Shown here: piece by piece, positions 3,667 to 56,044 of the stretch
Layout: every line of letters starts with the position of its first letter
Position numbering within the stretch: position 1 is the first letter of the stretch
Assembly (NCBI GenBank): GCA_965215015.1
Contig: OZ244042.1
Span: 4,928,001 to 4,992,000 of the forward strand
Source: Candidatus Poribacteria bacterium
Lineage (GTDB): Bacteria > Poribacteria > WGA-4E > PCPOR2b
DNA length: 64,000 nucleotides
Direction: 5' to 3'
Position numbers and translations under genes: made by a program
The notes under the pieces: model-generated
The model's database searches: none
What the model saw: the letters and a program-made list of their open reading frames with translations, nothing else
Told to the model about the DNA's origin: nothing

Positions 3667-4026
3667 TATCGAATACCTCGACTTAGAAAATAATCCATGT
3701 TTGAATGAAAAAGAGTTGGTTTCCCATCAACTCAATTAATGCTATAATTGACATGAAGGCCCTGAATAATAGTAGGGAATAAGTAGTTACTGACTTCCCG
3801 TTTTCCTCTTCATCAGGGCAGGTACCGATTTCGTTTCTTCGTCTCTCCCGATGAAACCGTGAATCCATGATATGGTAGGCATCCCCTTTGGAAGGCAACC
3901 GAATCGGGACTTGCGGGGGCTTAGGGGTGCGACGTTGCGTTAAATTCAGAGAAAAGCCCCTATCTACTCATTGCGTAATAGTATTGACCTGCGTGAGACT
4001 TGAGGAATGTAAAAGGAGAACCGATT

Positions 4027-4764
4027 ATGGCATCTTTTGACGAACTCGATTTCAAACTTCGCACCTTCATGCAACTCTATCGCTATCGACGTTACGACTC
4101 AACGCCGCACACCCCATTACAACGACCATTAGCAGAGTGTCGAGTTGCCTTAGTCACGACCGCAGGTCTACATACAGCGTCTCAGGAACCGTTCGATGAT
4201 CACTTCAAAGGCGGCGATTATTCCTATCGGGACATTCCCAACACCGTTGATGTACAAGGGTTGACAATCGCGCACAGAAGCACAGCATACGATCAGACCG
4301 GCAGCTTTACAGATCGAAATCTGGTGTTTCCGCTCGATCGCTTTCGAGAGCTAGAACAGACGGGCAAAATCGGGCAGCTCAACGATCGACATTTCAGCTT
4401 TATGGGGTCACAAACTGCTCCGGGGAGGTTAATTAAACGCACTGCCCCGGAGGTTGGGCGGCACCTCAAATCGGATGGCGTGGAGGTCGCCTTTCTGACC
4501 CCCGTCTGACCGCTATGTAATCAGTCCGTTGGGCTGATCCAGCGTGCAATCGAGGCGGTTGGTATCTCAACCGTTTCGATTACTTTAGTTCGGAGTATTG
4601 CTGAGCAGGTCAAGCCGCCCCGAGCCCTTGCTGTGCCATATTGCTTCGGCTACCCACTTGGGGAGCCGAACAACCCAACCCTGCACCATAAGATCATCTC
4701 AGCTGCGCTCGCTCTTTTACAGGATAGTCAACCTCTCCCCATTCTAGAGACGTTTACCCTTTAA
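4027..4764 (+). CDS. Selenoprotein of the glycine/sarcosine/betaine/D-proline reductase selenoprotein B family (PrdB-like); Sec at TGA 4507-4509
   Basis: SD AAAGGAGA precedes ATG 4027. Motifs 'VALVTTAG' and 'DRNLVFPLDR'. Reading through TGA gives 'LTPV-U-PLCNQSVGLIQRAIEAVGISTVSI...KPPRALAVPYCFGYPLGEP' to TAA 4762-4764 (245 aa). Confidence 0.88.
4511..4544 (+). promoter_or_regulatory. Putative bacterial SECIS element
   Basis: ATCAGTCC(4520-27)/GGGCTGAT(4531-38) stem with a GTT loop starting in G, 18 nt after UGA. Lower stem CGCT/AGCG. Confidence 0.75.
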
Positions 4765-10618: not shown

Positions 10619-11569
10619 TCAGTGCGGTAATAAGGTGGCTTTCATCTCCCCCCAGTACTGTGGGAGCAGCCCCGGTTGAGAAGGGACAGACAGACGTGGA
10701 TTCCATTCCCGCCCCGGAACATCCGCACCCGGATTATCGGTCAACTGTATCAGCTGCTTGTCAACCAAACCGAAACGGTAGATATTCCATACCCCATCCG
10801 TTTGACCAGAAAAGAGTATCGAATCCCCATCAGCAGAGAACATTGCAACATCAAAAGCCATCCGTGGAACCGGCACTCTCACCGTCTTGAACACCTTCTG
10901 CCGTCCTGCTGGGTGCAGTGTAGCAATCACCGGGAACGAACTGTTGACACTCCAATCAACGGCTTCCGTGTATAAAATCCGATTTCCCCCCGGTGACCAG
11001 TCTCCCAAAAACATCCCTGTATTCGGTTTCCGTTCAGAAACCTTCCACTGGCCTGTGCCATCTATACGGATAACATCAATATCTACACCTGATTCAAAGA
11101 GAATCCATTCCCCATCCGGCGACCATCTCGGTTTTGAGGCAAACGGTAAGTCTGTTATCTGCTTAACATTGCTACCATCGGCATCCATTATGAACAGATT
11201 AACCATCTGGTCTTCGTTGCGGTTGTGATTACTACGAAACACAATCTGATTTCCGTCAGGAGACCAGTCAGGATAACCATCAATTGCCGGCCGCCGGGTG
11301 AGATTGCGCTGATTGCTACCATCGGCATCCATTACATATACCTCCCAATTTCCATCGCGTTTGCTATCGAACGCAATTTGTCGTCCGTTAGGGGACCAGA
11401 CAGGGACGGCATCACTCGCTTCGTTAAAGGTCAGTCGTGTCTGGTTGGTTCCGTCCGAGTTCATGGTGTAGATCTCGGCGTTGCCATCTCGCTTGGAGTA
11501 AAACACAATTTTGCCCTGAAGGGAGCTCGTGGCAAGCCACAGACAAGCCACGAGCAAAGAAACGCGCAT
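10619..11569 (-). CDS. TolB-like PD40 beta-propeller secreted protein, array copy A
   Basis: Signal peptide, repeated P.WSP(N/D)G blades, C-terminal 'LLPQYWGEMK' tail, SD AAGGAGG. Confidence 0.9.
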   Translation of the reverse strand: MRVSLLVACLWLATSSLQGKIVFYSKRDGNAEIYTMNSDGTNQTRLTFNEASDAVPVWSPNGRQIAFDSKRDGNWEVYVMDADGSNQRNLTRRPAIDGYPDWSPDGNQIVFRSNHNRNEDQMVNLFIMDADGSNVKQITDLPFASKPRWSPDGEWILFESGVDIDVIRIDGTGQWKVSERKPNTGMFLGDWSPGGNRILYTEAVDWSVNSSFPVIATLHPAGRQKVFKTVRVPVPRMAFDVAMFSADGDSILFSGQTDGVWNIYRFGLVDKQLIQLTDNPGADVPGREWNPRLSVPSQPGLLPQYWGEMKATLLPH

Positions 11570-11824
11570 AAGACCTCCTTTAATCTATTTCAAAGAAATT
11601 ATCCCTTAATTGGGTTCGTAGTAGTGCAATTCATTGCACGTCAGGGAGGGCAACAGGGGGGGGAGAGGCAAGGCCCTATGGCTTGTGTTGCACTCATTCT
11701 TTACATGAGCGAAAACGGTATCCCGTCCCGATGCCGTTGTTTCATGAAACATTACGGCACCGGGACGGGATATTGCTACGAGCATCATAACTGGGACCCT
11801 GTTGCATTACGGCACATCTACCCC

Positions 11825-12775
11825 TCAGTGCGGTAATAAGGCAGATTTAATCTCCCCCCAATGCTTTGGAGCCAACCCCTGCGGTGAAACCGGCAAGCGC
11901 GGATTCCATTCGTGGGGAGAACTATCTTTGGCAGGAGAATCGGTCAACTGAAGGAGTTGACGGTCTCGGAGACGGAAACGGTAGACATCCCAGTTCCCCC
12001 CTTCCTTTCTACCGGCAAAGAGGATCGACTTCCCATCGGCACCCCAATCGGCGGCAGTCGAATCCATCTTCGGTATTGGCACCGGCTCACGTTTTTCCGG
12101 CCACAACGTCGCAATAATTATGGTTGAGTTTTTCACCGAGTCGTTGATGGAAGCCTTATACAGAATCTGTGTGCCATCCGGAGACCACCCGCCCAAAAAC
12201 ATCCCTGCCTCGGGAATAGGTTTGCTCACCCGCCGCCGTTTGGTGCCGTCGGCGTTTATCACATAAATTTGCCTCCGTTGATCTATTATTCCTCCAAAGG
12301 CGATTCTCTCCCCGTTAGGAGACCACTTCGGGGCGACGGCAAACTCTAGCTGTGTAACCTGTCTCACGTTACCGCCATCGGCATCCATCACAAAAATATT
12401 GAGATCGTGAGCATCACCGCTGTCCCGATCGCTCGTGAAGGCAATCTGTGAACCATCGGGCGACCAGTCAGGCGAGCTATCAAATGCCGGGTGCTGAGTC
12501 AGGTTCGTCTGGTTACCCCCATCGGCATCCATGACATAAAGCTCCTGGTTGCCATCCCGTTCGCTGCAAAAGACGATTTGCCGCCCGTTGGGGGACCAGG
12601 CGGGCGCAAAATCACCACCCGTCTGGTTATGCGTTAATCGTGTTTCACCTTTCCCGTCAGAACGCATCATGTAGATTTCAGTACGTCCATCCCGATGCGA
12701 ATGAAACACGATTTTACCTTGGGCGTTGCTTACGCTTAGCCAGAGACTGAGGGATATCGTTAAGAAACGCATCAT
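11825..12775 (-). CDS. TolB-like PD40 beta-propeller protein, divergent array copy B
   Basis: Signal peptide, WSPNG/WSPDG blades, tail 'LAPKHWGEIK'. Confidence 0.9.
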   Translation of the reverse strand: MMRFLTISLSLWLSVSNAQGKIVFHSHRDGRTEIYMMRSDGKGETRLTHNQTGGDFAPAWSPNGRQIVFCSERDGNQELYVMDADGGNQTNLTQHPAFDSSPDWSPDGSQIAFTSDRDSGDAHDLNIFVMDADGGNVRQVTQLEFAVAPKWSPNGERIAFGGIIDQRRQIYVINADGTKRRRVSKPIPEAGMFLGGWSPDGTQILYKASINDSVKNSTIIIATLWPEKREPVPIPKMDSTAADWGADGKSILFAGRKEGGNWDVYRFRLRDRQLLQLTDSPAKDSSPHEWNPRLPVSPQGLAPKHWGEIKSALLPH

Positions 12776-12919
12776 TCCTCCTCTATTGTATTCTAAATGG
12801 GTGCTCTACTTCCACTTTTAGTTGATGAAGTAAGCTTTCCGCGGAAGCTTCGCGAATCCAAAAAAGTAGGCGCATATACGAAAGAAAAACATCAACCGAT
12901 TAACAGCGCAAGAAACGAT

Positions 12920-13127
12920 GGGTCATGTGAAAAGAAAGTGCAAAGCACGAAGAGAAGGCCCCCTTCGTACCCCCTAACCCTCCGCAAGCGATGGGAAATT
13001 TGCAAGCTTGGGGAGAGCCACCCTTAATTGGGTTCGTAGTAGCGCAATTCATTGCGCGTCAGGGAGGGCAACCGGTGGGAGAGGCAAGCCCCTATGGCTG
13101 CTGTTGCACTCATTCTTTCCATGAGCG
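12920..13127. mobile_element. MITE-like element with one 65-bp REP unit
   Basis: Left end GGGTCATGTGAAAAGAAAGTGCA and right end TGCACTCATTCTTTCCATGAGCG form imperfect inverted repeats. Same architecture as 23247-23631 and 28138-28680. Confidence 0.7.
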
Positions 13128-13183
13128 AAAACGGTATCCCGTCCCGATGCCGTTGTCTCATGAAACATTACGGCACAGCTCCC

Positions 13184-14134
13184 TCAGTGCGGTAATAAGG
13201 GGGCTTTAATCTCCCCCCAGTACTGTGGGAGCAGCCCCTGTTGCGAAGGGACAGACAGACGGGGATTCCATTCCCGCCCCGGAACATCCGCACCCGGATT
13301 ATCGGTCAACTGTATCAGCTGCTTGTCAACCAACCCGAAACGGTAGATATTCCATACCCCATCCGTTTGACCAGAAAAGAGTATAGATTCCCCATCAGCC
13401 GAGAACATTGCGACCTTAAAAGGCCTCCGTGGAACCGGCACTCTCACCGTCTTGAACACCTTCTGCCGGCCTGCTGGGTGCAGTGTAGCCATCACCGGGA
13501 ACGAACTGTTGACACTCCAATCAACGGCTTCCGTATATAAAATCCGATTTCCACCCGGTGACCAGTCTCCCAAAAACATCCCTGTATTCGGTTTCCGTTC
13601 AGAAACCTTCCACTGTCCTGTGCCATCTATACGGATAACATCAACATCTACCCCTGATTCAAAGAGAATCCATTCCCCATCCGGCGACCATCTCGGTTTT
13701 GAGGCAAACGGTAAGTGGGTTATCTGCTTAACATTGCTACCATTGGCATCCATTATGAAAAGATTAATCATCTGGTCTTCGTTACCGTTGTGATTGCTAT
13801 CAAACACAATCTGATTTCCGTCAGGAGACCAGTCAGGATAAACATCAATTGCCGGCCGACGGGTGAGATTGCGCTGATTGCCACCATCGGCATCCATTAC
13901 ATATACCTCAGCGTTCCCATCTCGATAACTATGGAACGCAATCTGGCGACCGTTAGGGGACCAAACGGGGGTGGAATCCCTCGCCTCGTTAAAGGTCAGT
14001 CGTGTCTGGTTGGTTCCGTCCGAGTTCATGGTGTAGATCTCGGCGTTGCCATCTCGCTTGGAGTAAAACACAATTTTGCCCCAAAGGGGGCTCGTGACCA
14101 GCCAAAGGCTCGCCACGAGCAAAGAAAGGCGCAT
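13184..14134 (-). CDS. TolB-like PD40 beta-propeller protein, array copy C
   Basis: 316 aa, near-identical to copies A, D, F and G. Confidence 0.9.
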   Translation of the reverse strand: MRLSLLVASLWLVTSPLWGKIVFYSKRDGNAEIYTMNSDGTNQTRLTFNEARDSTPVWSPNGRQIAFHSYRDGNAEVYVMDADGGNQRNLTRRPAIDVYPDWSPDGNQIVFDSNHNGNEDQMINLFIMDANGSNVKQITHLPFASKPRWSPDGEWILFESGVDVDVIRIDGTGQWKVSERKPNTGMFLGDWSPGGNRILYTEAVDWSVNSSFPVMATLHPAGRQKVFKTVRVPVPRRPFKVAMFSADGESILFSGQTDGVWNIYRFGLVDKQLIQLTDNPGADVPGREWNPRLSVPSQQGLLPQYWGEIKAPLLPH

Positions 14135-14332
14135 AAAACCTCCTTCAGTCTATTTCAAAGAAATTATCCATTAATTGGGTGCGTAGTAGCGCGATTCATT
14201 GCGCGTCAGGGAGGGCAACCGGTGGGAGAGGCAAGCCCCTATGGCTGCTGTTGCACTCATTCTTTCCATGAGCGAAAACGGTATCCCGGCCCGATGCCGT
14301 TGTCTCATGAAACATTACGGCCCAGTGCCCCC

Positions 14333-15283
14333 TCAGTGCGGTAATAAGGGGGCTTTCATCTCCCCCCAGTACTGTGGGAGCAGCCCCTGTTGAGAAGGGA
14401 CAGACAGACGTGGATTCCATTCATGGGGACCGGCATCCGCCCCCGGATTATCGGTCAACTGTATCAGCTGCTTGTCAACCAACCCGAAACGGTAGATATT
14501 CCATACCCCATCCGTTTGACCAGAAAAGAGTATCGAATCCCCATCAGCCGAGAACATTGCGACCTTAAAAGGCCTCCGTGGAACCGGCACTCTCACCGTC
14601 TTGAACACCTTCTGCCGGCCTGCTGGGTGCAGTGTAGCAATCACCGGGAACGAACTGTTGACATGCCAATCAACGGCTTCCGTGTATAAAATCCGATTTC
14701 CCCCCGGCGACCAGTCTCCCAAAAACATCCCTGTATTCGGTTTTCGTTCAGAAACCTTCCACTGGCCTGTGCCGTCTATACGGATAACATCAATATCTAC
14801 CCCTGATTCAAAGAGAATCCACTCCCCATCCGGCGACCATCTCGGTTTTGAAGCGAACGGTAAGTCTGTTATCTGCTTAACATTGCTACCATCGGCATCC
14901 ATTATGAAAAGATTAAGCATCTGGTCTTCGTTGCGGTTGTGATTGCTATCAAATACAATCTGATTTCCGTCAGGAGACCAGTCAGGATAAACATCAATTG
15001 CCGGCCGCCGGGTGAGATTGCGCTGATTGCCACCATCGGCATCCATTACATATACCTCAGCGTTCCCATCTCGATAACTATGGAACGCAATCTGTCGTCC
15101 GTTAGGGGACCAAACAGGGGTGGAATCCCTCGCCTCGTTAAAGGTCAGTCGTGTCTGGTTGGTTCCGTCCGAGTTCATGGTGTAGATCTCGGCGTTGCCA
15201 TCTCGCTTGGAGTAAAACACAATTTTGCCCCAAAGGGGGCTCGTGGCAAGCCACAGACAAGCCACGAGCAAGGAAAGGCGCAT
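14333..15283 (-). CDS. TolB-like PD40 beta-propeller protein, array copy D
   Basis: 316 aa, near-identical to copies A, C, F and G. Confidence 0.9.
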   Translation of the reverse strand: MRLSLLVACLWLATSPLWGKIVFYSKRDGNAEIYTMNSDGTNQTRLTFNEARDSTPVWSPNGRQIAFHSYRDGNAEVYVMDADGGNQRNLTRRPAIDVYPDWSPDGNQIVFDSNHNRNEDQMLNLFIMDADGSNVKQITDLPFASKPRWSPDGEWILFESGVDIDVIRIDGTGQWKVSERKPNTGMFLGDWSPGGNRILYTEAVDWHVNSSFPVIATLHPAGRQKVFKTVRVPVPRRPFKVAMFSADGDSILFSGQTDGVWNIYRFGLVDKQLIQLTDNPGADAGPHEWNPRLSVPSQQGLLPQYWGEMKAPLLPH

Positions 15284-15328
15284 AAGACCTCCTTTAGTCT
15301 ATTTCAAAGAAATTATCCATTTCAAAGG

Positions 15329-15383
15329 AATTATCCCTAGTATTCATTCTGACCTCAGGGACAGGATCCTCGGCGATACCGAT
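15329..15383 (-). pseudogene. Duplicated 3' fragment of the small secreted-protein gene at 18870-19373
   Basis: 55 nt identical to 18887-18941. Confidence 0.85.
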
Positions 15384-15387
15384 AAGG

Positions 15388-15482
15388 GGCTTCATGCTCC
15401 GGCAAAGTGCGTACTCAGAATACTATTTTTGCGATACCTATTGGCCCTGCTTCAGAAAGATTGACTTCCTCCGAGCAATCCG
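15388..15482 (+). pseudogene. uppS: Diverged 95-nt fragment of the uppS 3' region
   Basis: Aligns ungapped to 10246-10340 with 13 differences, 11 of them at third codon positions ([32 protein letters not shown]). Confidence 0.9.
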
Positions 15483-15528
15483 TCGGCGTGGAGTTATCCC
15501 ACCTTTATAGGCAGAGTGCGTAGCGTCC

Positions 15529-16509
15529 TTAGGGTCGCAATACTTCAGATCTAATCTCCCCCCAGAACAGAGAGAGTGACTGCCGGGGCCTGACAGACAA
15601 TCGAGGATTCCATTCATGGGGACCGGCATCCGGCCCCGGATTATCGGTCAACTGTATCAATTTCCGGTCGGTCAGATGAAAACGATAGATATTCGAGTCG
15701 TTATTTCTCTTCCCCGAAAAAAGGATGGACTTCCCATCCCCAGCGAAGGTAGTAGTTTGGAATGGCAGCCGTGGCACCGGCACCCGGTACCATCGTTTCA
15801 CCTTCCTTCGGCCGACTAAGTTCAACGTGGCAATGACCGCAAAGGAATTCTTAAGGTTGGAGTCAACCGTCTCCTTATACAGGATCCGTTTCCCATCGGG
15901 AGACCACCCGCCCAAATGCATCCGCGTGTAAGGTCGCGGTTTTGACACCTTGAAACGACCGGTGCCATTGGCGTTGATGACAAAAATCTCCCGGCCATTC
16001 CCTATAACCCCTTCAAAAGCCATCCGTTTCCCATCCGGCGACCATTTGGGTGTTGAAGCAAATTCTAAGTCTGTAATCTGCTTGATGTTGCTCCCATCGG
16101 CGTCCATCACGAAAATGTTGAAATTTTCGTTCCGAGTGCTAGTAAACGCAATCTGTGAACTGTTGGGATGCCAATCTGCATAATTATCCAGGCCGGGATA
16201 ATGGGTCAACCTCCGTTGGTTTCCCCCATCCGCGTCCATCACATAAATCTCCGCGTTTGACTCCCCTCCATGCTTATGCGGGTCCTTATGATCATCGCGG
16301 AAGCTATGGAACGCAATCTGTCGTCCGTTGGGGGACCAGACAGGGGCAACATCTGTGGCTTCGTTAAACGTAAGTCGCACCTGACCGTTACCACTGGAAT
16401 CCATCATGTAGATTTCGTAATTTCCAGCCTGCTTGGAATAAAACACAATTTTGCCCCAAAGGGGGCCCGTGGCAAGCCACAGACAAGCCACGAGCAAGGA
16501 AAGGCGCAT
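15529..16509 (-). CDS. TolB-like PD40 beta-propeller protein, divergent array copy E
   Basis: Nearly the same signal peptide as C, D, F and G, but a diverged body with an insertion 'DDHKDPHKHGGESN'. Tail 'SLFWGEIR'. Confidence 0.9.
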   Translation of the reverse strand: MRLSLLVACLWLATGPLWGKIVFYSKQAGNYEIYMMDSSGNGQVRLTFNEATDVAPVWSPNGRQIAFHSFRDDHKDPHKHGGESNAEIYVMDADGGNQRRLTHYPGLDNYADWHPNSSQIAFTSTRNENFNIFVMDADGSNIKQITDLEFASTPKWSPDGKRMAFEGVIGNGREIFVINANGTGRFKVSKPRPYTRMHLGGWSPDGKRILYKETVDSNLKNSFAVIATLNLVGRRKVKRWYRVPVPRLPFQTTTFAGDGKSILFSGKRNNDSNIYRFHLTDRKLIQLTDNPGPDAGPHEWNPRLSVRPRQSLSLFWGEIRSEVLRP

Positions 16510-16705
16510 AAGACCTCCTTTAGTCTATGTGAAAGAAATTATCCATTAATTGGGTGCGTAGTAGCGCAATTCATTGCGCGTCAGGGAGGGCAACCGGGGG
16601 GAGAGGCAAGCCCCTATGGCTGCTGTCGCACTCATTCTTTCCATGAGCGAAAGCGGTATCCCGGCCCGATGCTGTTGTCTCATGAAACATTACGGCACAG
16701 CTCCC

Positions 16706-17656
16706 TCAGTGCGGTAATAAGGGGGCTTTAATCTCCCCCCAGTACTGTGGGAGCAGCCCCTGTTGCGAAGGGACAGACAGACGGGGATTCCATTCCCGTC
16801 CCGGAACATCCGCCCCCGGATTATCGGTCAACTGTATCAGCTGCTTGTCAACCAACCCGAAACGGTAGATATTCCATACCCCATCCGTTTGACCAGAAAA
16901 GAGTATCGAATCCCCATCAGCAGAGAACATTGCAACATCAAAAGTCATCCGTGGAACCGGCACTCTCACCGTCTTGAATACCTTCTGCCGGCCTGCTGGG
17001 TGCAGTGTAGCAATGACCGGGAACGAACTGTTGACATGCCAATCAACGGCTTCCGTGTATAAAATCCGATTTCCACCCGGTGACCAGTCTCCGAGAAACA
17101 TCCCTGTATTCGGTTTCCGTTCAGAAACCTTCCACTGCCCTGTGCCATCTATACGGATAACATCAATATCTATCCCTGATTCAAAGAGAATCCACTCCCC
17201 ATCCGGCGACCATCTCGGTTTTGAGGCAAAGGGTAAGTGGGTTATCTGCTTAACATTGCTACCATCGGCATCCATTATGAAAAGATTAATCATCTGGTCT
17301 TCGTTACGGTTGTGATTGCTATCAAACACAATCTGATTTCCGTCAGGAGACCAGTCAGGATAACCATCAATTGCCGGCCGCCGGGTGAGATTGCGTTGAT
17401 TGCCACCATCGGCATCCATTACATATACCTCAGCGTTCCCATCTCGATAACTATGGAACGCAATCTGGCGACCGTTAGGGGACCAAACGGGGGTGGAATC
17501 CCTCGCCTCGTTAAAGGTCAGTCGTGTCTGGTTGGTTCCGTCCGAGTTCATGGTGTAGATCTCGGCGTTGCCATCTCGCTTGGAGTAAAACACAATTTTG
17601 CCCCAAAGGGGGCTCGTGGCAAGCCACAGACAAGCCACGAGCAAGGAAAGGCGCAT
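16706..17656 (-). CDS. TolB-like PD40 beta-propeller protein, array copy F
   Basis: 316 aa, near-identical to copies A, C, D and G. Confidence 0.9.
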   Translation of the reverse strand: MRLSLLVACLWLATSPLWGKIVFYSKRDGNAEIYTMNSDGTNQTRLTFNEARDSTPVWSPNGRQIAFHSYRDGNAEVYVMDADGGNQRNLTRRPAIDGYPDWSPDGNQIVFDSNHNRNEDQMINLFIMDADGSNVKQITHLPFASKPRWSPDGEWILFESGIDIDVIRIDGTGQWKVSERKPNTGMFLGDWSPGGNRILYTEAVDWHVNSSFPVIATLHPAGRQKVFKTVRVPVPRMTFDVAMFSADGDSILFSGQTDGVWNIYRFGLVDKQLIQLTDNPGADVPGREWNPRLSVPSQQGLLPQYWGEIKAPLLPH

Positions 17657-17908
17657 AAGACCTCCTTTAATCTATGTGAAAGAGATTATCCATTAATTGG
17701 GTTCGTAGTAGCGCAATTCATTGCGCGTCAGGGAGGGCAACCGGGGGGAGAGGCAGTCCCCTATGGCTTCTATTGCACTCATTCTTTACATGAGCGAAAA
17801 CGGCATCCCGTCCCGATGCCGTTGTTCCATGAAACATTACGGCACCGGGACATGATGCTGCTACGAGCCTCATAACTGGGCCCGGTTGCATTACGGCCCA
17901 GCGACCCC

Positions 17909-18859
17909 TCAGTGCGGTAATAAGGGGGCTTTCATCTCCCCCCAGTACTGTGGGAGCAGTCCCTGTTGAGGGGGGACGGACAGACGGGGATTCCATTCCC
18001 GCCCCGGAACATCCGCCCCCGGATTATCGGTCAACTGTATCAGCTGCTTGTCGACCAACCCGAAACGGTAGATATTCCATACCCCATCCGTTTGACCAGA
18101 AAAGAGTATCGAATCCCCATCAGCAGAGAACATTGCAACATCAAAAGCCATCCGTGGAACCGGCACTCTCACCGTCTTGAACACCTTCTGCCGGCCTGCT
18201 GGGTGCAGTGTAGCAATCACCGGGAACGAACTGTTGACACTCCAATCAACGGCTTCCGTATATAAAATCTGATTTCCACCCGGTGACCAGTCTCCCAGAA
18301 ACATCCCTGTATTCGGTTTCCGTTCAGAAACCTTCCACTGTCCTGTGCCATCTATGCGGATAACATCAATATCTACCCCTGATTCAAAGAGAATCCACTC
18401 CCCATCCGGCGACCATCTCGGTTTTGAGGCAAAGGGTAAGTCTGTTATCTGCTTAACATTGCTACCATCGGCATCCATTATGAACAGATTAACCATCTGG
18501 TCTTCGTTACGGTTGTGATTGCTATCAAACACAATCTGATTTCCGTCAGGAGACCAGTCAGGATAACCATCAATTGCCGGCCGACGGGTGAGATTGCGCT
18601 GATTGCTACCATCGGCATCCATTACATATACCTCCCAATTTCCATCGCGTTTGCTATCGAACGCAATTTGTCGTCCGTTAGGGGACCAAACAGGGGCGGC
18701 ATCACTCGCTTCGTTAAAGGTCAGTCGTGTCTGGTTGGTTCCGTCGGAGTTCATGGTGTAGATCTCGGCGTTGCCATCTCGCTTGGAGTAAAACACAATT
18801 TTGCCCCAAAGGGGGCTCGTGGCAAGCCACAGACAAGCCACGAGCAAAGAAAGGCGCAT
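17909..18859 (-). CDS. TolB-like PD40 beta-propeller protein, array copy G (promoter-proximal)
   Basis: 316 aa. Starts 10 nt after the stop of the upstream small gene, with SD AAGGAGG. Confidence 0.9.
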   Translation of the reverse strand: MRLSLLVACLWLATSPLWGKIVFYSKRDGNAEIYTMNSDGTNQTRLTFNEASDAAPVWSPNGRQIAFDSKRDGNWEVYVMDADGSNQRNLTRRPAIDGYPDWSPDGNQIVFDSNHNRNEDQMVNLFIMDADGSNVKQITDLPFASKPRWSPDGEWILFESGVDIDVIRIDGTGQWKVSERKPNTGMFLGDWSPGGNQILYTEAVDWSVNSSFPVIATLHPAGRQKVFKTVRVPVPRMAFDVAMFSADGDSILFSGQTDGVWNIYRFGLVDKQLIQLTDNPGADVPGREWNPRLSVPPQQGLLPQYWGEMKAPLLPH

Positions 18860-18869
18860 AGGACCTCCT

Positions 18870-19373
18870 TTAGTTTATGCGAAAGAAATTATCCCTAGTA
18901 TTCATTCTGACCTCAGGGACAGGATCCTCGGCGATACCGATGAGATTGATTCGGGTGTAAGCATCAATATAAAAACGACCCCTTGGCAGTTCTCTAATAT
19001 CAGCTTCATGTGTTTTCTCTATGAAGGCACTCGAGTCATTATTTATACCCCACTCAGGGACTGTGACTATTTCGGTAGTGCCTTCAGGCGGTTTTTTCTT
19101 CACAATCATTTCTTCACTCGGCTGAAGTCGCATCACTCGATGAGTAAACTCGTAAGTTAGGTCAACTGCCTCATCGCTATCATTTTCGACGAAAAACTGG
19201 TGATAGCTATAGGTATGGGTCGCAGATTTATAGAGGTTACTGACGGTTACATCCCAGTATACCTCTTCGTTGTACCCATCAGTTGTTTCCAAGGCATAAA
19301 CCCCTACCACGGAAATCAATAGAACCGTCATAGCGATAAAAAGCGTTGATTTGCATCTTTGTGAAGTCAACAT
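18870..19373 (-). CDS. Small secreted beta-rich hypothetical protein (167 aa)
   Basis: SD GGAGGAG before ATG 19373, signal peptide ending 'VGVYA', C-terminus 'RDNFFRIN'. Confidence 0.75.
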   Translation of the reverse strand: MLTSQRCKSTLFIAMTVLLISVVGVYALETTDGYNEEVYWDVTVSNLYKSATHTYSYHQFFVENDSDEAVDLTYEFTHRVMRLQPSEEMIVKKKPPEGTTEIVTVPEWGINNDSSAFIEKTHEADIRELPRGRFYIDAYTRINLIGIAEDPVPEVRMNTRDNFFRIN

Positions 19374-19524
19374 GAGAACTCCTCCTCTGATTGGTAAGGA
19401 ATGCTTTGGCATCCCATTGGGTGAGAACCGTCAACTCTGAGTTGATTCACATATCCGATGAATATGTGGTTCTCTTTTTCACCAAGTATTCACGGTGTTG
19501 CCAACTTGGTTTCACCCTTTACGA

Positions 19525-19540
19525 AGCAAGACCCATGCCA
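19525..19540 (-). promoter_or_regulatory. sigma54 -24/-12 promoter
   Basis: TGGCATG-GGTC-TTGCT on the minus strand matches TGGCAC(G)-N4-TTGCW. Confidence 0.8.
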
Positions 19541-19619
19541 ACATCCTAAATTATGCCCCCGCTTCAGACATGATGCGGGTTTGAGAGGAGGCCTGCCACC
19601 GGCTCTCGTGTGGCAAAAC

Positions 19620-19717
19620 GGGCGGAAAATCGCACACAAAATTGCACATCATCCTACATCACCCTAACTATAGACTAAAGATAATGGGTGTGCGGTTGAT
19701 GTGCGAAAAATCGCACA
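19620..19717. promoter_or_regulatory. Candidate upstream activator (enhancer) sites
   Basis: Palindrome TGTGCGA-AAAA-TCGCACA (19700-19717) plus related half-sites AAAATCGCACA and AAAATTGCACA (19626-19648). Confidence 0.6.
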
Positions 19718-19764
19718 CTTCGGATGCTGCTAGTCAAAGCTATAATAAAACTATCCTGTTTCTG

Positions 19765-20715
19765 TCATCGGATGCCATATTTTTTTAACCGGCGGGATAA
19801 AGCATGTCGGCTCAATCCAAGTTGCTGGGCGGTTTTAGTAATGTTACCTTGATTCGCCGCCAAGGCGCGACGAATCTGCTCCTGCTCGGCAAGCATTTCC
19901 TCGACCGGGGCTGGTAACGGCCTCGCTGTGCCAATCCCTGTTCGTGAAAAAGAAAACATCTCAACGTCAGGAAAGTGAAAATGGAGGTGTTTGGGTTGAA
20001 TCGCCCCCCCTTCACTTACAATAAACGCATGCTCAATCATGTTCCTCAATTCACGCACATTGCCCGGGAAGGCGTATTCCTTCAAAGCCTCGGCAGCTTT
20101 AGGAGTCAATGGCGGGGTTGATACTCCCATTTGAGTCGCAACCGCACTCAGTTGGTATTTAGCAAGGAGCAGAATATCCTCTTTCCTTTCGCGTAGGGGT
20201 GCAATCTCAATCAAAATTCCAGCCAAGCGAAAGTAGAGGTCTGCCCGAAATAGTCCTGCCTCGACCTTAGCCTTGAGGTCCGCATTGGTGGCCGCTATTG
20301 TCCGAATATCTACCTTTTTACTCTGCGTTGCACCGATTGGTGTGATGACACTATTGTTCAGTGCCCGTAGGAGTTTAACCTGGGTTTCGATTGGCATGTC
20401 ACCGACCTCGTCGAGAAAGAGTGTCCCCTTGTCAGCACGTTCAAAGCAGCCTATCTGATCCGCTATTGCTCCAGTGAATGCACCACGGACATGGCCGAAG
20501 AAGATGGACTCTGCCAGTTCAAAAGGAATCGCACCACAATTGACGTCCACAAATGGTGCCGATGCCCGGGGCCCTCTAGCACGAATGGATCGGGCAACCA
20601 GTTCTTTACCGACGCCGGTTTCCCCGGTAATTAAAACCGAAGTACTGTCGTTGTTGCGGAGTTGGCGAATGGTTGTCTGAATGGCTCGCATAGTATCACT
20701 GTCACCAAGTAACAT
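19765..20715 (-). CDS. sigma54-dependent enhancer-binding protein lacking an N-terminal sensor domain
   Basis: Walker A GETGVGKE, GAFTGA, Walker B LFLDEV, 'FRADLYFRL', 'FPGNVREL', Fis-type HTH. The AAA+ domain starts at the N-terminus. Confidence 0.9.
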   Translation of the reverse strand: MLLGDSDTMRAIQTTIRQLRNNDSTSVLITGETGVGKELVARSIRARGPRASAPFVDVNCGAIPFELAESIFFGHVRGAFTGAIADQIGCFERADKGTLFLDEVGDMPIETQVKLLRALNNSVITPIGATQSKKVDIRTIAATNADLKAKVEAGLFRADLYFRLAGILIEIAPLRERKEDILLLAKYQLSAVATQMGVSTPPLTPKAAEALKEYAFPGNVRELRNMIEHAFIVSEGGAIQPKHLHFHFPDVEMFSFSRTGIGTARPLPAPVEEMLAEQEQIRRALAANQGNITKTAQQLGLSRHALSRRLKKYGIR

Positions 20716-23246: not shown

Positions 23247-23631
23247 GCCTCATGTTCAAAGAAAGTGCCCCTTCGTACCCCCCAAGCCCCCCTGCAAGCG
23301 GAAGGAGGGAGCACAACCGGGGGAGAAGTCAGCTTAATTAGGTTCGTAGTAGCGCGATTCATTGCGCGTCAGGGAGCACAACCGGGGGAGCGGCAATCTT
23401 AATTGGGTTCGTAGTAGCGCAATTCATTGCGCGTCAGGGAGCACAACCGGGGGAGAGACACCCTTAATTAGGTTCGTAGTAGCGCAATTCATTGCGCGTC
23501 AGGGAGGGCAAACAAGGGAGAAGTCAGCTTAATTAGGTTCGTAGTAGCGCAATTTATTGCGCGTCAGGGAGCACAACCAAGGGAGAGGCAAGGCCCTATG
23601 GCTGCTGTCGCACTCATTCTTTCCATGAGCG
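23247..23631. mobile_element. MITE-like element with four tandem 65-bp REP units
   Basis: Units start at 23333, 23398, 23463 and 23528. Ends GCCTCATGTTCAAAGAAAGTGC and GCACTCATTCTTTCCATGAGCG. Confidence 0.8.
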
Positions 23632-28137: not shown

Positions 28138-28680
28138 GGCTCATATTAAAAGAAAGTGCAAAGCACGAAGAGAAGTGCCCCTTCGTACCCCCCAAGGCCC
28201 CCTAACCCCCCGCAAGCGAGGAGAGGGATGGCAACCAGGGGAGCGGCAATCTTAATTGGGTTTGTAGTAGCGCAATTCATCGCGCGTGAGAGAGGGCAAC
28301 CAGGGGAGAGCCACCCTTAATTGGGTTTGTAGTAGCGCAATTTATTGCGCGTCAGGGAGGACAACCGGGGGAGCGGCAATCTTAATTATGTTCGTAGTAG
28401 CGCAATTCATGGCGCGTCAGGAATGACAACCAGGGGAGAGACAATCTTAATTAAGTTTGTAGTAGTGCAATTCATGGCGCGTCAGGGAGGACAACCGGGG
28501 GAGCGACAAGCTTAATTGGGTTTGTAGTAGCGCAATTCATGGCGCGTCAGGGATGACAACCAGGGGAGAGACAATCTTAATTAAGTTTGTAGTAGTGCAA
28601 TTCATGGCGCGTCAGGAATGACAACCAGGGGAAGAGGCAAGGCCCTATGGCCTCTGTTACACCCATTCTTTATATGGGCG
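28138..28680. mobile_element. MITE-like element with six tandem 65-bp REP units
   Basis: Units start at 28251, 28316, 28381, 28446, 28511 and 28576. Left end GGCTCATATTAAAAGAAAGTGCA. Confidence 0.8.
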
Positions 28681-32924: not shown

Positions 32925-33707
32925 ATGAACGTCACCTGGTGGTTGGTTTCAAGTGGAATCATTCTTATTCTTGCCGTTTGTATTCTGACTCTCGTTGCCC
33001 GGCGGCGAAGATACTTGTGGGACCAAAAACTTAGTAGAGAATACCCTAAACCGATACATCCCCTCCCCCGCGAGTTAGTCCATGAGATTCGCAATCCATT
33101 AAATAGCATTAACCTTAACCTCCAAATTTTAGAAGAAGACCTATCCGCTGAGAATCCTAGTTTCCCCAGCGATTTGCAAAAGCGGGTCCGACGTATCCGT
33201 AGGGAAGTGGAACGGCTTGATCGAATATTAACCGATTTTCGTCGTTATGCAACTCTGCCGCCGTTGACGTTTGAAACCTGCGACCTTGCCGTGCTTATCG
33301 AAGAAGTTTTGGACTTCAACGAGCCGGAGGCACAACGGCAAAACGTTCAGGTCAACCGTGAGATCCAAGAGCTGCCTCCCGTTCAACTCGATCCATCGCA
33401 GTTCAAGCAGGCATTACTGAATCTTATTATCAACGGGGTTCAGGCGATGGAAGATGGCGGCACACTCACAGTTCGCGCAGAACCGTTGAATGGCGGGATA
33501 CAGATTGATGTGGAAGATACAGGTCAAGGAATCGAACCAGGGCAACTCGACAAAATCTTTGATCTGTTCATTTCCACAAAAGAGGAGGGGACTGGAGTCG
33601 GTCTCACAATCGTAAAACAAATTATCGAAGGACATAGTGGGCGTGTAAATGTGGAGAGCAATCCCGGGCAAGGTGCAAAATTCTCCATTTTGCTGCCCGC
33701 CAAGTAA
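32925..33707 (+). CDS. Short membrane-anchored histidine kinase
   Basis: One TM helix, H-box 'HEIRNPL', N-box 'NLIIN', 'DTGQGI', 'GTGVGL'. Confidence 0.9.
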   Translation: MNVTWWLVSSGIILILAVCILTLVARRRRYLWDQKLSREYPKPIHPLPRELVHEIRNPLNSINLNLQILEEDLSAENPSFPSDLQKRVRRIRREVERLDRILTDFRRYATLPPLTFETCDLAVLIEEVLDFNEPEAQRQNVQVNREIQELPPVQLDPSQFKQALLNLIINGVQAMEDGGTLTVRAEPLNGGIQIDVEDTGQGIEPGQLDKIFDLFISTKEEGTGVGLTIVKQIIEGHSGRVNVESNPGQGAKFSILLPAK

Positions 33708-33916
33708 AAAGTAGCAGGTATGTTCCGCAGGCCATAACCTGACCCCGATCGGCCTAGATAGGCATATCCAAGCTCTCTTTGCGCGTGTGCCGGCGATATG
33801 TGTATCAAAACACACCACCCCCGTAGGGCGGGCATCTTGCTTGACCTACGCTTCAGAGGGAACACAGATCTGTGTTCCGTTTCTTCTTACGCATTACGAA
33901 TCACGTATGATACTTC

Positions 33917-34144
33917 ATAGGACTGACGTAGTTGAACGTTCAAAGGAAACACCCGACACCATTGCACGCCGGTGTCGGTTCTATACGACTCACGACGCCC
34001 GATCAATCGGGCACCTACAGTTCATCCGACTGCTTTATGAGCACTCCTTAAGTAAGTTCTGTTGACATTTGCCACCCGGGGGTCGCAGCCTCTCGGAACA
34101 GAGTTGGGTTGAACGGGAGTTGTGCCCCCTAACGTCCAGTCCTA
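33917..34144. mobile_element. IS701-like MITE
   Basis: Ends TAGGACTGACGT and ACGTCCAGTCCTA, with several internal hairpins. Confidence 0.5.
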
Positions 34145-34203
34145 CTAAAAGGGGGAAACAGTAGTAGGCCCGTTCCGCTAAATGTCAGTGGCACCTAACA
34201 AAC

Positions 34204-34327
34204 TAAGAGTTACACATTTGAGTTTGTAGTCGCGCAATTCAACCCGCGTCTGTAACGGAGTAGGCATACGGCGTATGCCCTAACCCTCCGCTTGCGGGGG
34301 TTAGGGGGGGCAAGTGCTTAACTCCTA
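34204..34327. mobile_element. IS701-like MITE carrying REP hairpins
   Basis: Ends TAAGAGTTACAC and TTAACTCCTA. Interior is similar to ~21009-21145. Confidence 0.55.
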
Positions 34328-34401
34328 CTTCATTAGCCCTAGCAGAGCGACCCTACTATCAGGCAACTAGCAGCTTAGGTTAAGTAGCAACAGGTGATAA
34401 G

Positions 34402-35877
34402 ATGATCCCCAAAATCCTTGTTGTAGACGATGATTCAGCAAGCCTCGAGGCAGCCATCGAAGTGCTTGAACGCGAAGGCTATGACCTATTCGCAGCATCA
34501 GGTGGACGCGAAGCATTAGAGACTTTAGCCGTTGAAAACATCGATGTCGTCATCACGGATGAAAAGATGCCCGATTTGAGCGGGATTGATCTGCTCAAAC
34601 ACATAAAGGACAACTATCCTTACACGCAAGTTATCATCTTAACAGGCTATGGCTCAATTGATAGTGCGGTTGAAGCCACGAAAGCGGGAGCAGACGGTTA
34701 CCTCGAAAAACCGATACAAATTTACATCTTACGCCAAACGGTGAAAGACGCACTCGAAAAACGGTTACTCTTCCTCCAAAACGTTAATCTACGAGAACAA
34801 CTTGATGACAAGTTCGGGTTTGCGAACATCATCGGCACGTCAAAACCGATGCGAGAGCTTTTCCGCATGATTCGGCTCGTTGCTCCGACCAATGTAACGG
34901 TCCTAATACGCGGGGAAAGTGGTGTTGGCAAGGAATTAATCGCGAATGCAATCCACAACCATAGCCGCCGAAAGGACAAACCGTATCGGACAATTAACTG
35001 CGGCGCGCTCTATCGTGAGCTCCTTGAAAGTGAACTGTTTGGACATGAGCGGGGGGCTTTCACCGGGGCGACTAACCGCAAACTGGGGGTGTTTGAGCAG
35101 GCAAATGGCGGGACCCTACTGTTGGACGAAGTTGGAGAAATGGGACCTGAAACACAGGTGAAATTCCTCCGTGTACTGGAAGGACAGGAATTCACGCGAC
35201 TCGGCGGGAATAAACCCATCAAAACCGATGTCCGTATCATCGCTGCGACCAATGCGGACCTCGAAGAAGCGGTGAACAGCGGAAAATTCCGTAACGACCT
35301 CTATCATCGGATCAACCGATTTCCAATTCGGGTGCCCCCGTTAAGAGAGCGGCGAGAGGATATTCCCCTATTGGTCAGCGCGTTCATCAAAGAGTTTAGC
35401 AAAGAACACGACCGGCCCGTTTCAGGGATCACCCCCCAGGCGATGAACTATCTGAAAAATAGGGATTGGTCTGGAAACATCCGGGAATTACGCAACGCCC
35501 TCGAAACCACCATTATTTTAGCAAGGACAGAGACCCTTCAACTCGATGATTTTTCCTCCGAATTTCAAGCGAATTTCACCGATTTGGAGGCCGCTGCGGA
35601 TTCTGATGTCCAAATGGGGGGGGCTCTGAATCCCGATACCCCGGATAACCAGGAAGCTTCCATTGATGCGGATGATGAAAAGGTTGGAACAGTTGGAATG
35701 ACAATGGACGAAATCGAAAAAGAGGCTATCGGCAAGACACTAGCGGAAACCGGGAACAATAAAAAGCGGGCGGCGGAAATGCTCGGAATCGGTTTGCGGA
35801 CGCTGTATCGCAAACTGGAATCTTACGGTTGGTTAAACAAAGGCGATCAAGAGGATGAGGATGACCCACGTGATTAA
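34402..35877 (+). CDS. NtrC/AtoC-family sigma54 response regulator
   Basis: Receiver domain (VVDDD, TDEKMP), GESGVGKE, GAFTGA, C-terminal HTH. Confidence 0.93.
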   Translation: MIPKILVVDDDSASLEAAIEVLEREGYDLFAASGGREALETLAVENIDVVITDEKMPDLSGIDLLKHIKDNYPYTQVIILTGYGSIDSAVEATKAGADGYLEKPIQIYILRQTVKDALEKRLLFLQNVNLREQLDDKFGFANIIGTSKPMRELFRMIRLVAPTNVTVLIRGESGVGKELIANAIHNHSRRKDKPYRTINCGALYRELLESELFGHERGAFTGATNRKLGVFEQANGGTLLLDEVGEMGPETQVKFLRVLEGQEFTRLGGNKPIKTDVRIIAATNADLEEAVNSGKFRNDLYHRINRFPIRVPPLRERREDIPLLVSAFIKEFSKEHDRPVSGITPQAMNYLKNRDWSGNIRELRNALETTIILARTETLQLDDFSSEFQANFTDLEAAADSDVQMGGALNPDTPDNQEASIDADDEKVGTVGMTMDEIEKEAIGKTLAETGNNKKRAAEMLGIGLRTLYRKLESYGWLNKGDQEDEDDPRD

Positions 35878-41178: not shown

Positions 41179-42156
41179 CTACGAAATTCCCAACTTCTTT
41201 AACTTAGAACGGAAAGTGGAGTAGGGGATGCCGAGGTTTTTTGCGGCCTGGCGGCGATTCCATCGAGTTCCTTCAAGTGCCTGCAAGATCCGCTCGTACT
41301 CGCTTTCGCCTGACGATTGGTCATATTGGGACTGCCGCTTTTCCAATGCGTCTCCTTGAATATTAAGATGTTTGACTCCTATCACCGAAATCTTTGGCGG
41401 ACAAAGAACCGCGGTGCGTTCAACGATGTTCTGCAACTCACGTACATTGCCCGGGTATTGATAATCCAGAAGGAACGATTGAGCCCCTTCTGAAAAGCCG
41501 TCAAAGCTGCGCCCACTTTTGGCGGTATATGCTTCCAGAAAATAGTCAGCCAACGGTAGGATATCCTCGGGGCGTTCCCGAAGCGGTGTTAAGTGGATAG
41601 GAAAAAGGTTGAGGCGATAGAATAGATCGCTGCGGAACCGCCCAGACTCGACAAGGTACGCGGGATTTCTATTGAATGCGCTGATAATACGCACCCGGAA
41701 GGAGATCTCCAGAGCACCGCCAACACGTCGCAGGGTCTGGTTATCGAGGACCCGTAGGAGCTTCGCTTGTATGCGGAGTGAGAGGCCAGCAGCTTCATCC
41801 AGAAAAAGCGTACCGTTATTTGCCATCTCAAAGTAGCCAGCTCTATCCGCCGTTGCATCGGTGAACGCTCCTTTGACGTGGCCAAAGAGTTCGCTTTCGA
41901 CCAGCGACTCTGGCAACGCCGAGCAGTTCACACCAACAAACGGTTGCTCTTCCAAAGACGATTGAGAGTGAATCGTTCGGGCGACCACCTCTTTTCCTGT
42001 ACCAGTTTCGCCGGTGAGGAGAATCCTATCAACATTTGCTCGGACCGCCTGCCGGATGCGCTCTCGCACCAGTTGGGTGGCGGGACTGTTTCCCACAAAG
42101 TTTGGATTTTGTATCCGTGGCTGGCGGTGGCTTGTTCGTCGGTTATCCATATCCAT
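41179..42156 (-). CDS. Second sensor-less sigma54 enhancer-binding protein
   Basis: GETGTGKE, GAFTDA, LFLDE, FRSDLFYRL, PGNVREL, HTH, with only ~20 aa before the AAA+ domain. Confidence 0.88.
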   Translation of the reverse strand: MDMDNRRTSHRQPRIQNPNFVGNSPATQLVRERIRQAVRANVDRILLTGETGTGKEVVARTIHSQSSLEEQPFVGVNCSALPESLVESELFGHVKGAFTDATADRAGYFEMANNGTLFLDEAAGLSLRIQAKLLRVLDNQTLRRVGGALEISFRVRIISAFNRNPAYLVESGRFRSDLFYRLNLFPIHLTPLRERPEDILPLADYFLEAYTAKSGRSFDGFSEGAQSFLLDYQYPGNVRELQNIVERTAVLCPPKISVIGVKHLNIQGDALEKRQSQYDQSSGESEYERILQALEGTRWNRRQAAKNLGIPYSTFRSKLKKLGIS

Positions 42157-43696: not shown

Positions 43697-43712
43697 TGGC
43701 ATGTTAATTGCT
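43697..43712 (+). promoter_or_regulatory. sigma54 -24/-12 promoter
   Basis: TGGCATG-TTAA-TTGCT. Confidence 0.8.
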
Positions 43713-55961: not shown

Positions 55962-56044
55962 TACTTCACATACTCATATCAGGAGGAAAATTTGATGAAA
56001 TAAAGTCGCAACAGCCCTGCGTTCCATCTTCGGGAGAAGTAACT

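Follow-up and report, generated by a model that had tools for sequence, protein, structure and literature searches.

The 64,000-nucleotide (nt) stretch of contig OZ244042.1 from Candidatus Poribacteria bacterium that we analyzed (the window, to which coordinates refer unless a genome position is given) carries on its minus strand, between 10619 and 20715, a gene for a 316-amino-acid (aa) sigma-54 activator, an open reading frame (ORF) at 18870-19412 and seven ORFs of 316-326 aa. We consider this locus probably to be a lineage-specific, sigma-54-dependent envelope operon whose array of beta-propeller genes arose by tandem duplication and gene conversion, not a store of cassettes. The sigma-54 architecture is supported, with a sensor-less activator, an upstream site and a -24/-12 promoter preceding a small exported protein and then the propellers. 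The first-pass annotation of this DNA had listed an activator without sensor domain, upstream palindromic sites, a -24/-12 promoter, a 167-aa secreted protein and seven TolB-like genes, and each of these parts was borne out (Table 1); its interpretation of them, one expression site followed by stored cassettes of partner tail and propeller, was not. G000 denotes the genome under study, and G001, G002 and so on denote related genomes.

The activator, a bacterial enhancer-binding protein (bEBP), has no sensor or receiver domain in the Pfam scan, because Sigma54_activat already begins at residue 3 (residues 3-169, E 6.5e-61) and only AAA_lid_14 and HTH_8 follow. Its translation contains the GAFTGA motif. 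Against NCBIfam, every equivalog row stayed under its cut-off, including those for PspF (240.5 bits against 443.55 for TIGR02974 and 200.6 against 529 for NF008622). PspF and HrpR/HrpS are sensor-less sigma-54 activators, and the locus resembles them in the reduction to AAA+ and helix-turn-helix (HTH) domains, the GAFTGA motif and the position of the gene beside its target promoter and an upstream palindrome; it differs in showing no visible PspA-like or HrpV-like negative regulator and in its unrelated target genes. About 20 bEBP paralogues were found in the genome by tblastn, and elsewhere in the window a histidine kinase (260 aa) lies close to an NtrC-type receiver-bEBP (491 aa; 32925-35877, plus strand).

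The perfect palindrome is the likely, putative binding site of the activator. Its exact sequence occurs once in the whole 5.94-Mb genome, and G002 and G003 show these half-sites ahead of their orthologous promoters. With up to three mismatches, the pattern was found three times in the window versus 2.5 times expected by chance; a search for inverted repeats of at least 12 nt near the site found none because the palindrome arms are 7 nt long. The promoter consensus with up to two mismatches was likewise not above chance (15 in the window versus 15.3 expected), so that support for the promoter is contextual: rpoN is present twice in the genome (two Sigma54_DBD matches over cut-off), seven of the 52 genome-wide matches to the strict sigma-54 motif lie within 1.5 kb of the 12 loci of the propeller family described below, and the identical promoter 16-mer is present at the G004 and G003 loci.

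A candidate structured leader RNA (model R1) separates the promoter from the small gene. Its predicted fold consists of one stem, a Y-shaped three-way junction and a terminal hairpin, after which the Shine-Dalgarno sequence (SD) follows, with a minimum free energy of -41.9 kcal/mol in single-sequence folding (z -2.67). The structure used is this single-sequence centroid; it replaced an RNAalifold consensus on alignment A2, which was dropped because it paired promoter DNA with the leader and contained no compensatory pairs. The leader block recurs at 13 other loci of seven genomes with 79-87% identity, and promoter plus leader are 87% identical between G000 loci whose small proteins are about 40% identical over their first 92-96 residues. 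The leader covariance model matched 14 of 19 other genomes of the genus and none of nine genomes of other genera. Rfam 15 gave no match within 19374-19524 at E ≤ 0.1 and none on the REP-like spacer units described below, and its lone row for the locus region, MIR2600 in a spacer, was a chance match (30.5 bits against a gathering threshold of 98).

A functional leader RNA is, in our estimate, about as probable as not. That promoter and leader instead spread recently as DNA (through gene conversion or as a mobile promoter cassette), the block having no role as RNA and its structure being incidental, is possible, if on the unlikely side. Such spread would fit a block that is 79-87% identical across loci with unrelated flanks, and it would fit the 14 full-length copies, in which three pairs are compensatory, a count equaled by 62 of 500 shuffles. 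In the same copies, however, most one-sided changes still allow wobble pairing, and the share of cells that pair is 95.5%, versus 33-42% with slid partners. When diverged copies were included (30 model-aligned sequences), 14 of 35 pairs were compensatory, compared with 4-8 for slid partners and 4.0 ± 1.6 in shuffles (0 of 500 reached the observed value), although the alignment behind this count was fitted to the model and includes many partially matching rows, which weighs against the RNA. Furthermore, an in-frame upstream ATG of the leader is not kept as an ORF: in G004 a stop follows after five codons, and conservation is therefore not at the protein level, a point that also speaks against mere spread of DNA. 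To our knowledge, RNA-level control after sigma-54 promoters has rarely been described, and if the leader proves to be a switch, it would form a second regulatory layer on top of the sensor-less activator.

A second site in the window shares some of these elements. It comprises a 325-aa sensor-less sigma-54 activator whose AAA+ domain starts at residue 21 (41179-42156, minus strand), a one-mismatch -24/-12 motif facing it (43697-43712, plus strand), a weak partial match to model R1 (43802-43872, plus strand; E 1.7e-4) and, after this match, a 456-aa ORF without Pfam family (44177-45547, plus strand). The site looks like another dedicated activator-promoter pair.

Table 1 Features of the locus and its spacers (positions in the window)
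Feature	Position	Strand	Remarks
Sigma-54 activator (bEBP), 316 aa	19765-20715	-	Pfam: AAA+ and Fis-type HTH only
Perfect palindrome TGTGCGA-N4-TCGCACA	19700-19717		About 160 nt upstream of the -24 element; putative activator site
Degenerate palindrome copy, 3 mismatches	19619-19636		Pattern search; alone not above chance
-24/-12 sigma-54 promoter TGGCAT-N5-TTGCT	19525-19540	-	Consensus match
Candidate structured 5' leader, model R1, ~127 nt	19391-19517	-	Between promoter and SD of small gene
Small protein gene, 167 aa	18870-19373	-	N-terminal hydrophobic helix (signal peptide/membrane anchor), then beta-sandwich
P1 (P1-type), 316 aa	17909-18859	-	Signal peptide, six-bladed PD40 propeller, conserved disordered C-terminal tail
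REP-like copy	17679-17764	-	Array spacer
8-codon small-gene tail with SD before P2	17657-17693	-	End approximate, ~37 nt before start codon
P2 (P1-type)	16706-17656	-	95% aa identity to P1
REP-like copy	16532-16617	-	Array spacer
8-codon tail with SD before P3	~16510-16546	-	End approximate
P3, 326 aa, different lineage	15529-16509	-	59% identity to P1
Longest small-gene remnant with SD, before P4	15284-15386	-	~24 codons, internal 18-nt duplication
P4 (P1-type)	14333-15283	-	94% identity to P1; residues 284-287 match P3 (gene-conversion patch)
REP-like copy	14157-14242	-	Array spacer
8-codon tail with SD before P5	~14135-14171	-	End approximate
P5 (P1-type)	13184-14134	-	93% identity to P1
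REP-like copy	13010-13095	-	Array spacer
Terminator-like hairpin in 408-nt P5-P6 spacer	12942-12973	-	Consensus scan only
P6, third lineage	11825-12775	-	54% identity to P1; last codons and downstream spacer P1-like (repeat families D16, D20)
REP-like copy	11592-11677	-	Array spacer
8-codon tail with SD before P7	~11570-11606	-	End approximate
P7 (P1-type)	10619-11569	-	97% identity to P1
Two tandem 65-nt REP-like copies downstream of P7	10437-10587	-	Repeat family D15
Terminator-like hairpin after P7	10405-10425	-	Consensus scan only

The small protein is signal-anchored and starts, most likely, at the second ATG of its ORF, 6 nt after GAGGAGG; the database gene call is likewise 167 aa. Its AlphaFold2 (AF2) model (pLDDT 86) shows a helix at residues 5-22 followed by 10 strands. 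No Pfam, NCBIfam or PADLOC family matched it. Fold searches returned generic Ig-like or beta-sandwich matches only (best Z 8.9, the MspA rim domain; Foldseek TMq ≤ 0.43), which were too generic for a function to be drawn from them; a sequence profile search of its alignment against the PDB gave a single chance row (E 0.97), and the ESM Atlas gave no usable match. A profile search across 1.84 billion representatives assembled a family of 131 clusters at E ≤ 1e-3. The small proteins of the related loci are only 19-30% identical to the window protein, yet all have the hydrophobic N-terminal segment and three motifs in common. With a closer small-protein alignment five loci were matched: two were poribacterial, and the other three, from Acidimicrobiia, were weak, short matches that we regarded as chance.

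P1 to P7 are PD40 genes, the repeats being present in all three of the propellers scanned (P1, P3 and P6; E 1.2e-28 for P1 in Pfam). The AF2 model of P1 is a six-bladed propeller (pLDDT 86) whose last 21 residues (296-316) score below 50 and are predicted to be disordered, though they carry a C-terminal motif, EWNPRL...WGEIKS, that is conserved across 25 aligned paralogues. The best structural matches of P1 were TolB chains (E 7.6e-17, TMq 0.73, root-mean-square deviation 3.0 over 282 columns, 17% identity), with which it shares the form of a Sec-exported six-bladed PD40 beta-propeller. Unlike TolB, the proteins of the locus lack the N-terminal alpha/beta (TolA-binding) domain, so that the mature protein starts at blade 1, and they have no tol/pal neighbours; they do carry an additional conserved disordered C-terminal tail, and the genome has 31 paralogues instead of a single gene. 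Scores of P1, P3 and P6 against the NCBIfam TolB model (TIGR02800) were 152.7-226.9 bits versus a cut-off of 343.15, with matches running from about profile position 200 to 418, and no match anywhere in the genome reached that cut-off. The propeller resembles TolB but is not TolB. Antisense ORFs of 203-212 aa at 11225-11836, 13715-14344 and 17237-17875 (plus strand) overlap the propellers and repeat with them; we took them as by-products of the repeated coding sequence and not as genes.

TolB docks on TolA through its disordered N-terminus. By analogy, the small protein may be the inner-membrane-anchored adaptor of an inducible periplasmic binding module, onto which the propellers would dock via EWNPRL...WGEIKS; we offer this as a tentative idea. 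The propellers would then serve as ligand- or partner-binding modules, whose amplification would raise dose and widen variety. A complex prediction for P1 (residues 20-316) with the small protein (27-167) from alignment input returned no answer (score 0.00 in two runs, without controls).

A more pointed alternative is that the array constitutes a decoy or immunity repertoire, in which TolB-propeller-only proteins would soak up TolB-hijacking bacteriocins, phage proteins or other envelope-targeting ligands, with several lineages for several agents. The fold lends this some appeal: its nearest matches are TolB propellers, among them structures with colicin TolB-box peptides bound, and the proteins lack the TolA-binding domain. 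Many paralogues, fast turnover, indel polymorphism and expression apparently under tight control by sigma-54 or alternative sigma factors would also be in keeping with such a role. We nevertheless consider it unlikely, given the 17% sequence identity to TolB, the low ratios of nonsynonymous to synonymous substitution (dN/dS), the absence of toxin genes, phage genes and PADLOC families from the locus, and the lack of any tie between the family and an antagonist. The earlier proposal of an undescribed, diversified recognition or immunity system fared in part only: the family is absent from the libraries searched, but dN/dS values of 0.14-0.33 among the five similar copies do not indicate diversifying selection. 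In the result listings of full-text literature searches, nothing on this system turned up, and in this sense, absent from the family libraries used and from the literature found, the protein family appears to be undescribed.

How the array itself arose can be read from its copies and spacers. P1, P2, P4, P5 and P7 (the P1-type copies) are 93.3-96.6% identical at the nucleotide level, with 100 variable sites and 35 of 316 residues variable and scattered along the protein. Across their 10 pairs, dN/dS was 0.14-0.33 at dS of 0.09-0.18. To judge by these substitutions, they are maintained genes of some age under purifying selection, neither fresh nor diversifying. In a propeller tree of 31 rows (25 rows of alignment A4 and six relatives, leaving out six G000 paralogues not in A4 and copies of the relatives missed by the pattern-based extraction), the five formed one clade (100/100). 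P3 grouped with the single syntenic G004 copy and two copies of another G000 locus, at 905-917 kb (100/99), and P6 fell in a third clade; P6 is 81% identical to one syntenic copy of G014. Substitution patterns among the copies are mosaic, and the three lineages and chimeric ends are probably owed to gene conversion and exchange with paralogous loci.

A typical spacer consists of ~60 nt found only in the array, a ~65-nt repeat resembling repetitive extragenic palindromic (REP) elements, and a remnant of the 3' end of the small gene with an SD. As the first-pass annotation had noted, such tails with an SD are real; they precede five of the six downstream copies (P2, P3, P4, P5 and P7) and are missing before P6. 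They read, each up to a stop codon, MDNLFHID (P2), MDNFFHID (P3), a longer sequence (P4; 14 letters, not shown), MDNFFEID (P5) and RDNFFEID (P7). Their lengths are unequal, with four of 8 codons and one of about 24, and they cover only the variable extreme C-terminus of the 167-aa protein; in front of them, no SD-like sequence is visible in the array spacers. The P4 remnant spans ~100 nt, 55 nt of which are identical to the small gene, and is found by tblastn (24 aa, 83%, E 1.4e-6). Orthologous small proteins (P0002 and P0003) have C-terminal ends similar to FHID and FEID; descent from an earlier allele of this gene would account for the tails better than an origin as stored partners. Two other G000 arrays hold larger small-gene remnants between their copies. 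On the simplest reading, the tails would be duplication-junction scars, because their lengths are unequal, no SD is visible before them and larger remnants occur in two other arrays; the first breakpoint would have fallen within the 3' end of the small gene and its junction been propagated later.

The repeat in the spacers is not specific to the array. Its 24-nt core has 64 exact copies in the genome and 223 with up to three mismatches (115 blastn matches), and all 19 core copies in the window lie on the minus strand; only the flanks of the spacer repeat are array-specific. Tandem clusters with 65-nt spacing also occur far from the array, with four copies at 23369-23564 and six at 28287-28612 (minus strand). 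REP elements and bacterial interspersed mosaic elements (BIMEs) are intergenic repeats, which the unit resembles in its length of ~65 nt, its GC-rich hairpin core, its hundreds of copies and its frequent tandem position between genes; its sequence family differs in being lineage-specific as far as searched. Candidate roles here are those of an mRNA stabilizer, an attenuator or a recombination substrate. The P2-P3 spacer folded no more stably than its shuffles (z 0.04), and we therefore claim no structured spacer RNA beyond the REP hairpin. The terminator consensus scan yielded seven sites in the region versus 11.6 expected.

These data bear directly on the cassette model of the first-pass annotation, in which an expressed small gene would be served by stored tail/propeller cassettes, swapped in by recombination to alter specificity. 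The tail remnants before five of six downstream copies, the visible gene conversion between copies and the locus content that differs between species are all compatible with it, and we still regard it as very unlikely. Each of the seven propellers has its own ATG, AGGAGG and signal peptide, and none is therefore a silent cassette, as silent-cassette antigenic variation would involve. The remnants, at 8 to ~24 codons with no SD visible ahead of them, confine themselves to the variable C-terminus, and purifying selection acts on the five similar copies, among which no patch of variability stands out. The repeat in the spacers is spread over the genome, with its 223 copies at up to three mismatches. 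Neither a recombinase nor a reverse transcriptase (RT) was found among the window ORFs: the 46 of at least 130 aa (37 outside the locus, and nine in it that were either scanned or of the same kind as those scanned) contained no integrase, transposase or RT domain in Pfam, in agreement with the earlier remark that the window lacks integrase and RT.

The specific precedents invoked for stored cassettes fit no better. Like an integron, the locus has a single promoter at one end, same-strand single-gene units and hairpin-capable repeats between them; unlike one, its units are paralogues of one gene and not unrelated cassettes. No intI is present in the window, no recombinase domain was detected at E ≤ 1e-5 in the 37 other window ORFs of at least 130 aa, and in place of a cassette-specific attC there is the dispersed REP-like element, so the proposed likeness to integron cassettes fails. 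Orphan toxin C-terminus/immunity modules occur downstream of cdiA or rhs genes, and a 3'-end fragment of the upstream gene before each downstream gene is common to both arrangements. In the locus, however, the fragments amount to 8 to ~24 codons and no domain, the upstream gene encodes a 167-aa beta-sandwich of no toxin family, and the downstream genes encode propellers that are exported, in place of small immunity proteins of the cytoplasm; Pfam, NCBIfam and PADLOC assigned neither the small protein nor the propellers to a toxin or defence family, and this comparison, too, does not hold. For a diversity-generating retroelement, the window offers no RT, and the substitutions between copies are scattered and mostly synonymous.

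To assess whether the array is real, we compared unitigs from four coded short-read runs of four studies with the locus; such unitigs cannot establish copy order. In X1, possibly the source sample, and X5, three copy-specific stretches (P6 flanked by its two spacers, P3 plus spacer, and the small gene together with the bEBP) were recovered with 0 differences, and X6 contained the same parts with 10-15 differences, representing a diverged strain. Depths in X1 were 342-454 for unique unitigs and 643-1345 for those common to P1-type copies, a two- to fourfold excess (depth is not copy number). A collapsed-allele artefact is unlikely. More broadly, an assembly that laid strain alleles of one propeller in tandem or over-expanded a shorter array is barely credible: the 93-97% identity of five copies and the metagenomic origin of the genome would allow it, but the genome is a single 5.94-Mb contig, distinct spacers and two divergent lineages (P3 and P6) part the copies, the deeper shared unitigs of X1 point the other way, runs from other studies again contain copy-specific unitigs at 0 differences, and further arrays of the family exist in G000 and in related genomes.

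The locus belongs to a wider family. By tblastn, G000 contains 31 full-length propeller paralogues at 12 loci, many of them in tandem; nine of the 12 have a small-family gene directly upstream (one interrupted by a stop), and three do not. A histidine kinase and a receiver-bEBP stand beside the module at 905-920 kb, and sigma-70 region-4 proteins beside modules at three scanned loci and at a fourth judged by similarity. At 1.10 Mb (G000:C1:1102623-1103096; L037:1624-2097), a 157-aa bEBP fragment lies directly upstream of a lone propeller paralogue; it covers Sigma54_activat profile positions 46-126 only and resembles the window bEBP. The site appears to be a locus of this type in decay. Among the genomes searched, the module family was found only in this Poribacteria genus. 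The small-protein family occurs in 12 of 19 other genomes of the genus and in none of 21 genomes of other genera; propellers at E ≤ 1e-70 occur in all 19 (1-16 matches each versus 31 in G000) and in none of nine genomes of other genera of the taxonomic family.

Two further sets of ORFs were seen in connection with this family. Inside or beside propeller loci, three tandem ORFs of ~170 aa (G000:C1:910678-912238, L027) and one ORF of 246 aa (1396679-1397419, L035) share a C-terminal GIDxxEFLS motif. A Pfam scan, which covered the 246-aa ORF and two of the tandem three, assigned none of them to a family; the ORFs may be a further accessory component. At G000:C1:5341516-5346784 there is a tandem array of four or five PD40 ORFs of ~322-332 aa that are ~30% identical to P1, and the PD40 expansion therefore goes beyond the family studied here.

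We next compared, across 11 related genomes, what lies between uppS and the gene for the M55 peptidase. In five of them (G001, G003, G005, G008 and G011) the site is empty, with the two genes 24-33 nt apart, and in the other six its content differs. The site holds a bEBP, the small gene and one propeller in G004, a bEBP and two modules in G009, a bEBP and two propellers in G014, a bEBP, one propeller and fragments in G002, a bEBP and one fragment in G015, and three propellers with a small gene, but no bEBP match, in G007. The bEBPs of the five sites that have one are 70-78% identical orthologues of the window protein. G003, whose site is empty, has such genes elsewhere in its genome: a bEBP, a small-like gene and two propellers. 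Across genomes, flanking proteins are 88-99% identical, small proteins 27-45% and propellers 41-81%. The locus is thus not invariant; invariance is what the first-pass annotation had named as refuting its proposal, and the variation seen agrees with its expectation but calls for no cassette mechanism. Because the site is empty or differently filled in these genomes, the island is, by gene content, accessory and fast-evolving, with rapid turnover between species. No target-site duplication or mobility gene was found at its borders, and we therefore do not call it a mobile element.

Taken together, we propose that the activator would bind the palindrome and open the sigma-54 promoter, giving one long mRNA with the structured leader, the anchor protein and the exported propellers in turn. 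The REP hairpins and the hairpin before P6 might modulate read-through or stability, possibly by attenuation. The array would have grown by unequal crossing-over, with the first breakpoint in the 3' end of the small gene; the tails before the propellers would be there because later duplications copied this first junction along. Gene conversion and exchange with paralogous loci would then have shaped the propeller lineages and chimeric ends.

Several points weigh against this tandem-duplication operon. An activator without sensor leaves the input signal unexplained, and the extent of the transcript is a deduction from the layout. The terminator-like hairpin before P6 may split the array into two units, and a promoter for a separate P6-P7 unit was not found. 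The short tails may have been kept for a role in translating the gene that follows. To judge by the tree, P3 and P6 are not products of local duplication, and exchange between loci or old duplications with losses must therefore be assumed. For the adaptor and docking idea, finally, gene adjacency and the conserved disordered tail are the whole of the evidence.

Elsewhere in the window, a 430-aa ORF (55958-57250, plus strand) has both a Macro domain and a DarT domain (ssDNA thymidine ADP-ribosyltransferase, E 2e-37) and looks like a fused DarT-DarG-type toxin-antitoxin. A 169-aa ORF (4000-4509, plus strand) corresponds to the C-terminal part only of glycine/sarcosine/betaine reductase selenoprotein B (profile positions 201-345 of 347), whose N-terminal part may lie upstream across an in-frame TGA.

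In summary, the mechanism behind the array is probably an ordinary one, tandem amplification with gene conversion, which removes a tempting but unsupported new cassette system. The interest that remains is moderate, not extraordinary: a lineage-specific, regulated family of envelope modules, possibly with a new leader RNA, in which a beta-sandwich anchor is paired with TolB-like propellers, 31 of them in one Poribacteria genome, beside dedicated regulators. In its boldest form, which we hold to be speculative and improbable, these would be undescribed, genus-limited modules of anchored beta-sandwich and TolB-propeller-only proteins, wired to dedicated activators or sigma factors and many with a ligand- or protein-responsive leader-RNA switch, whose arrays would act as a fast-evolving periplasmic recognition or decoy repertoire against molecules of the host or competitors, tuned by unequal recombination. 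Empty in some sister species and differently filled in others, the site offers a natural experiment on the gain and loss of accessory envelope genes.

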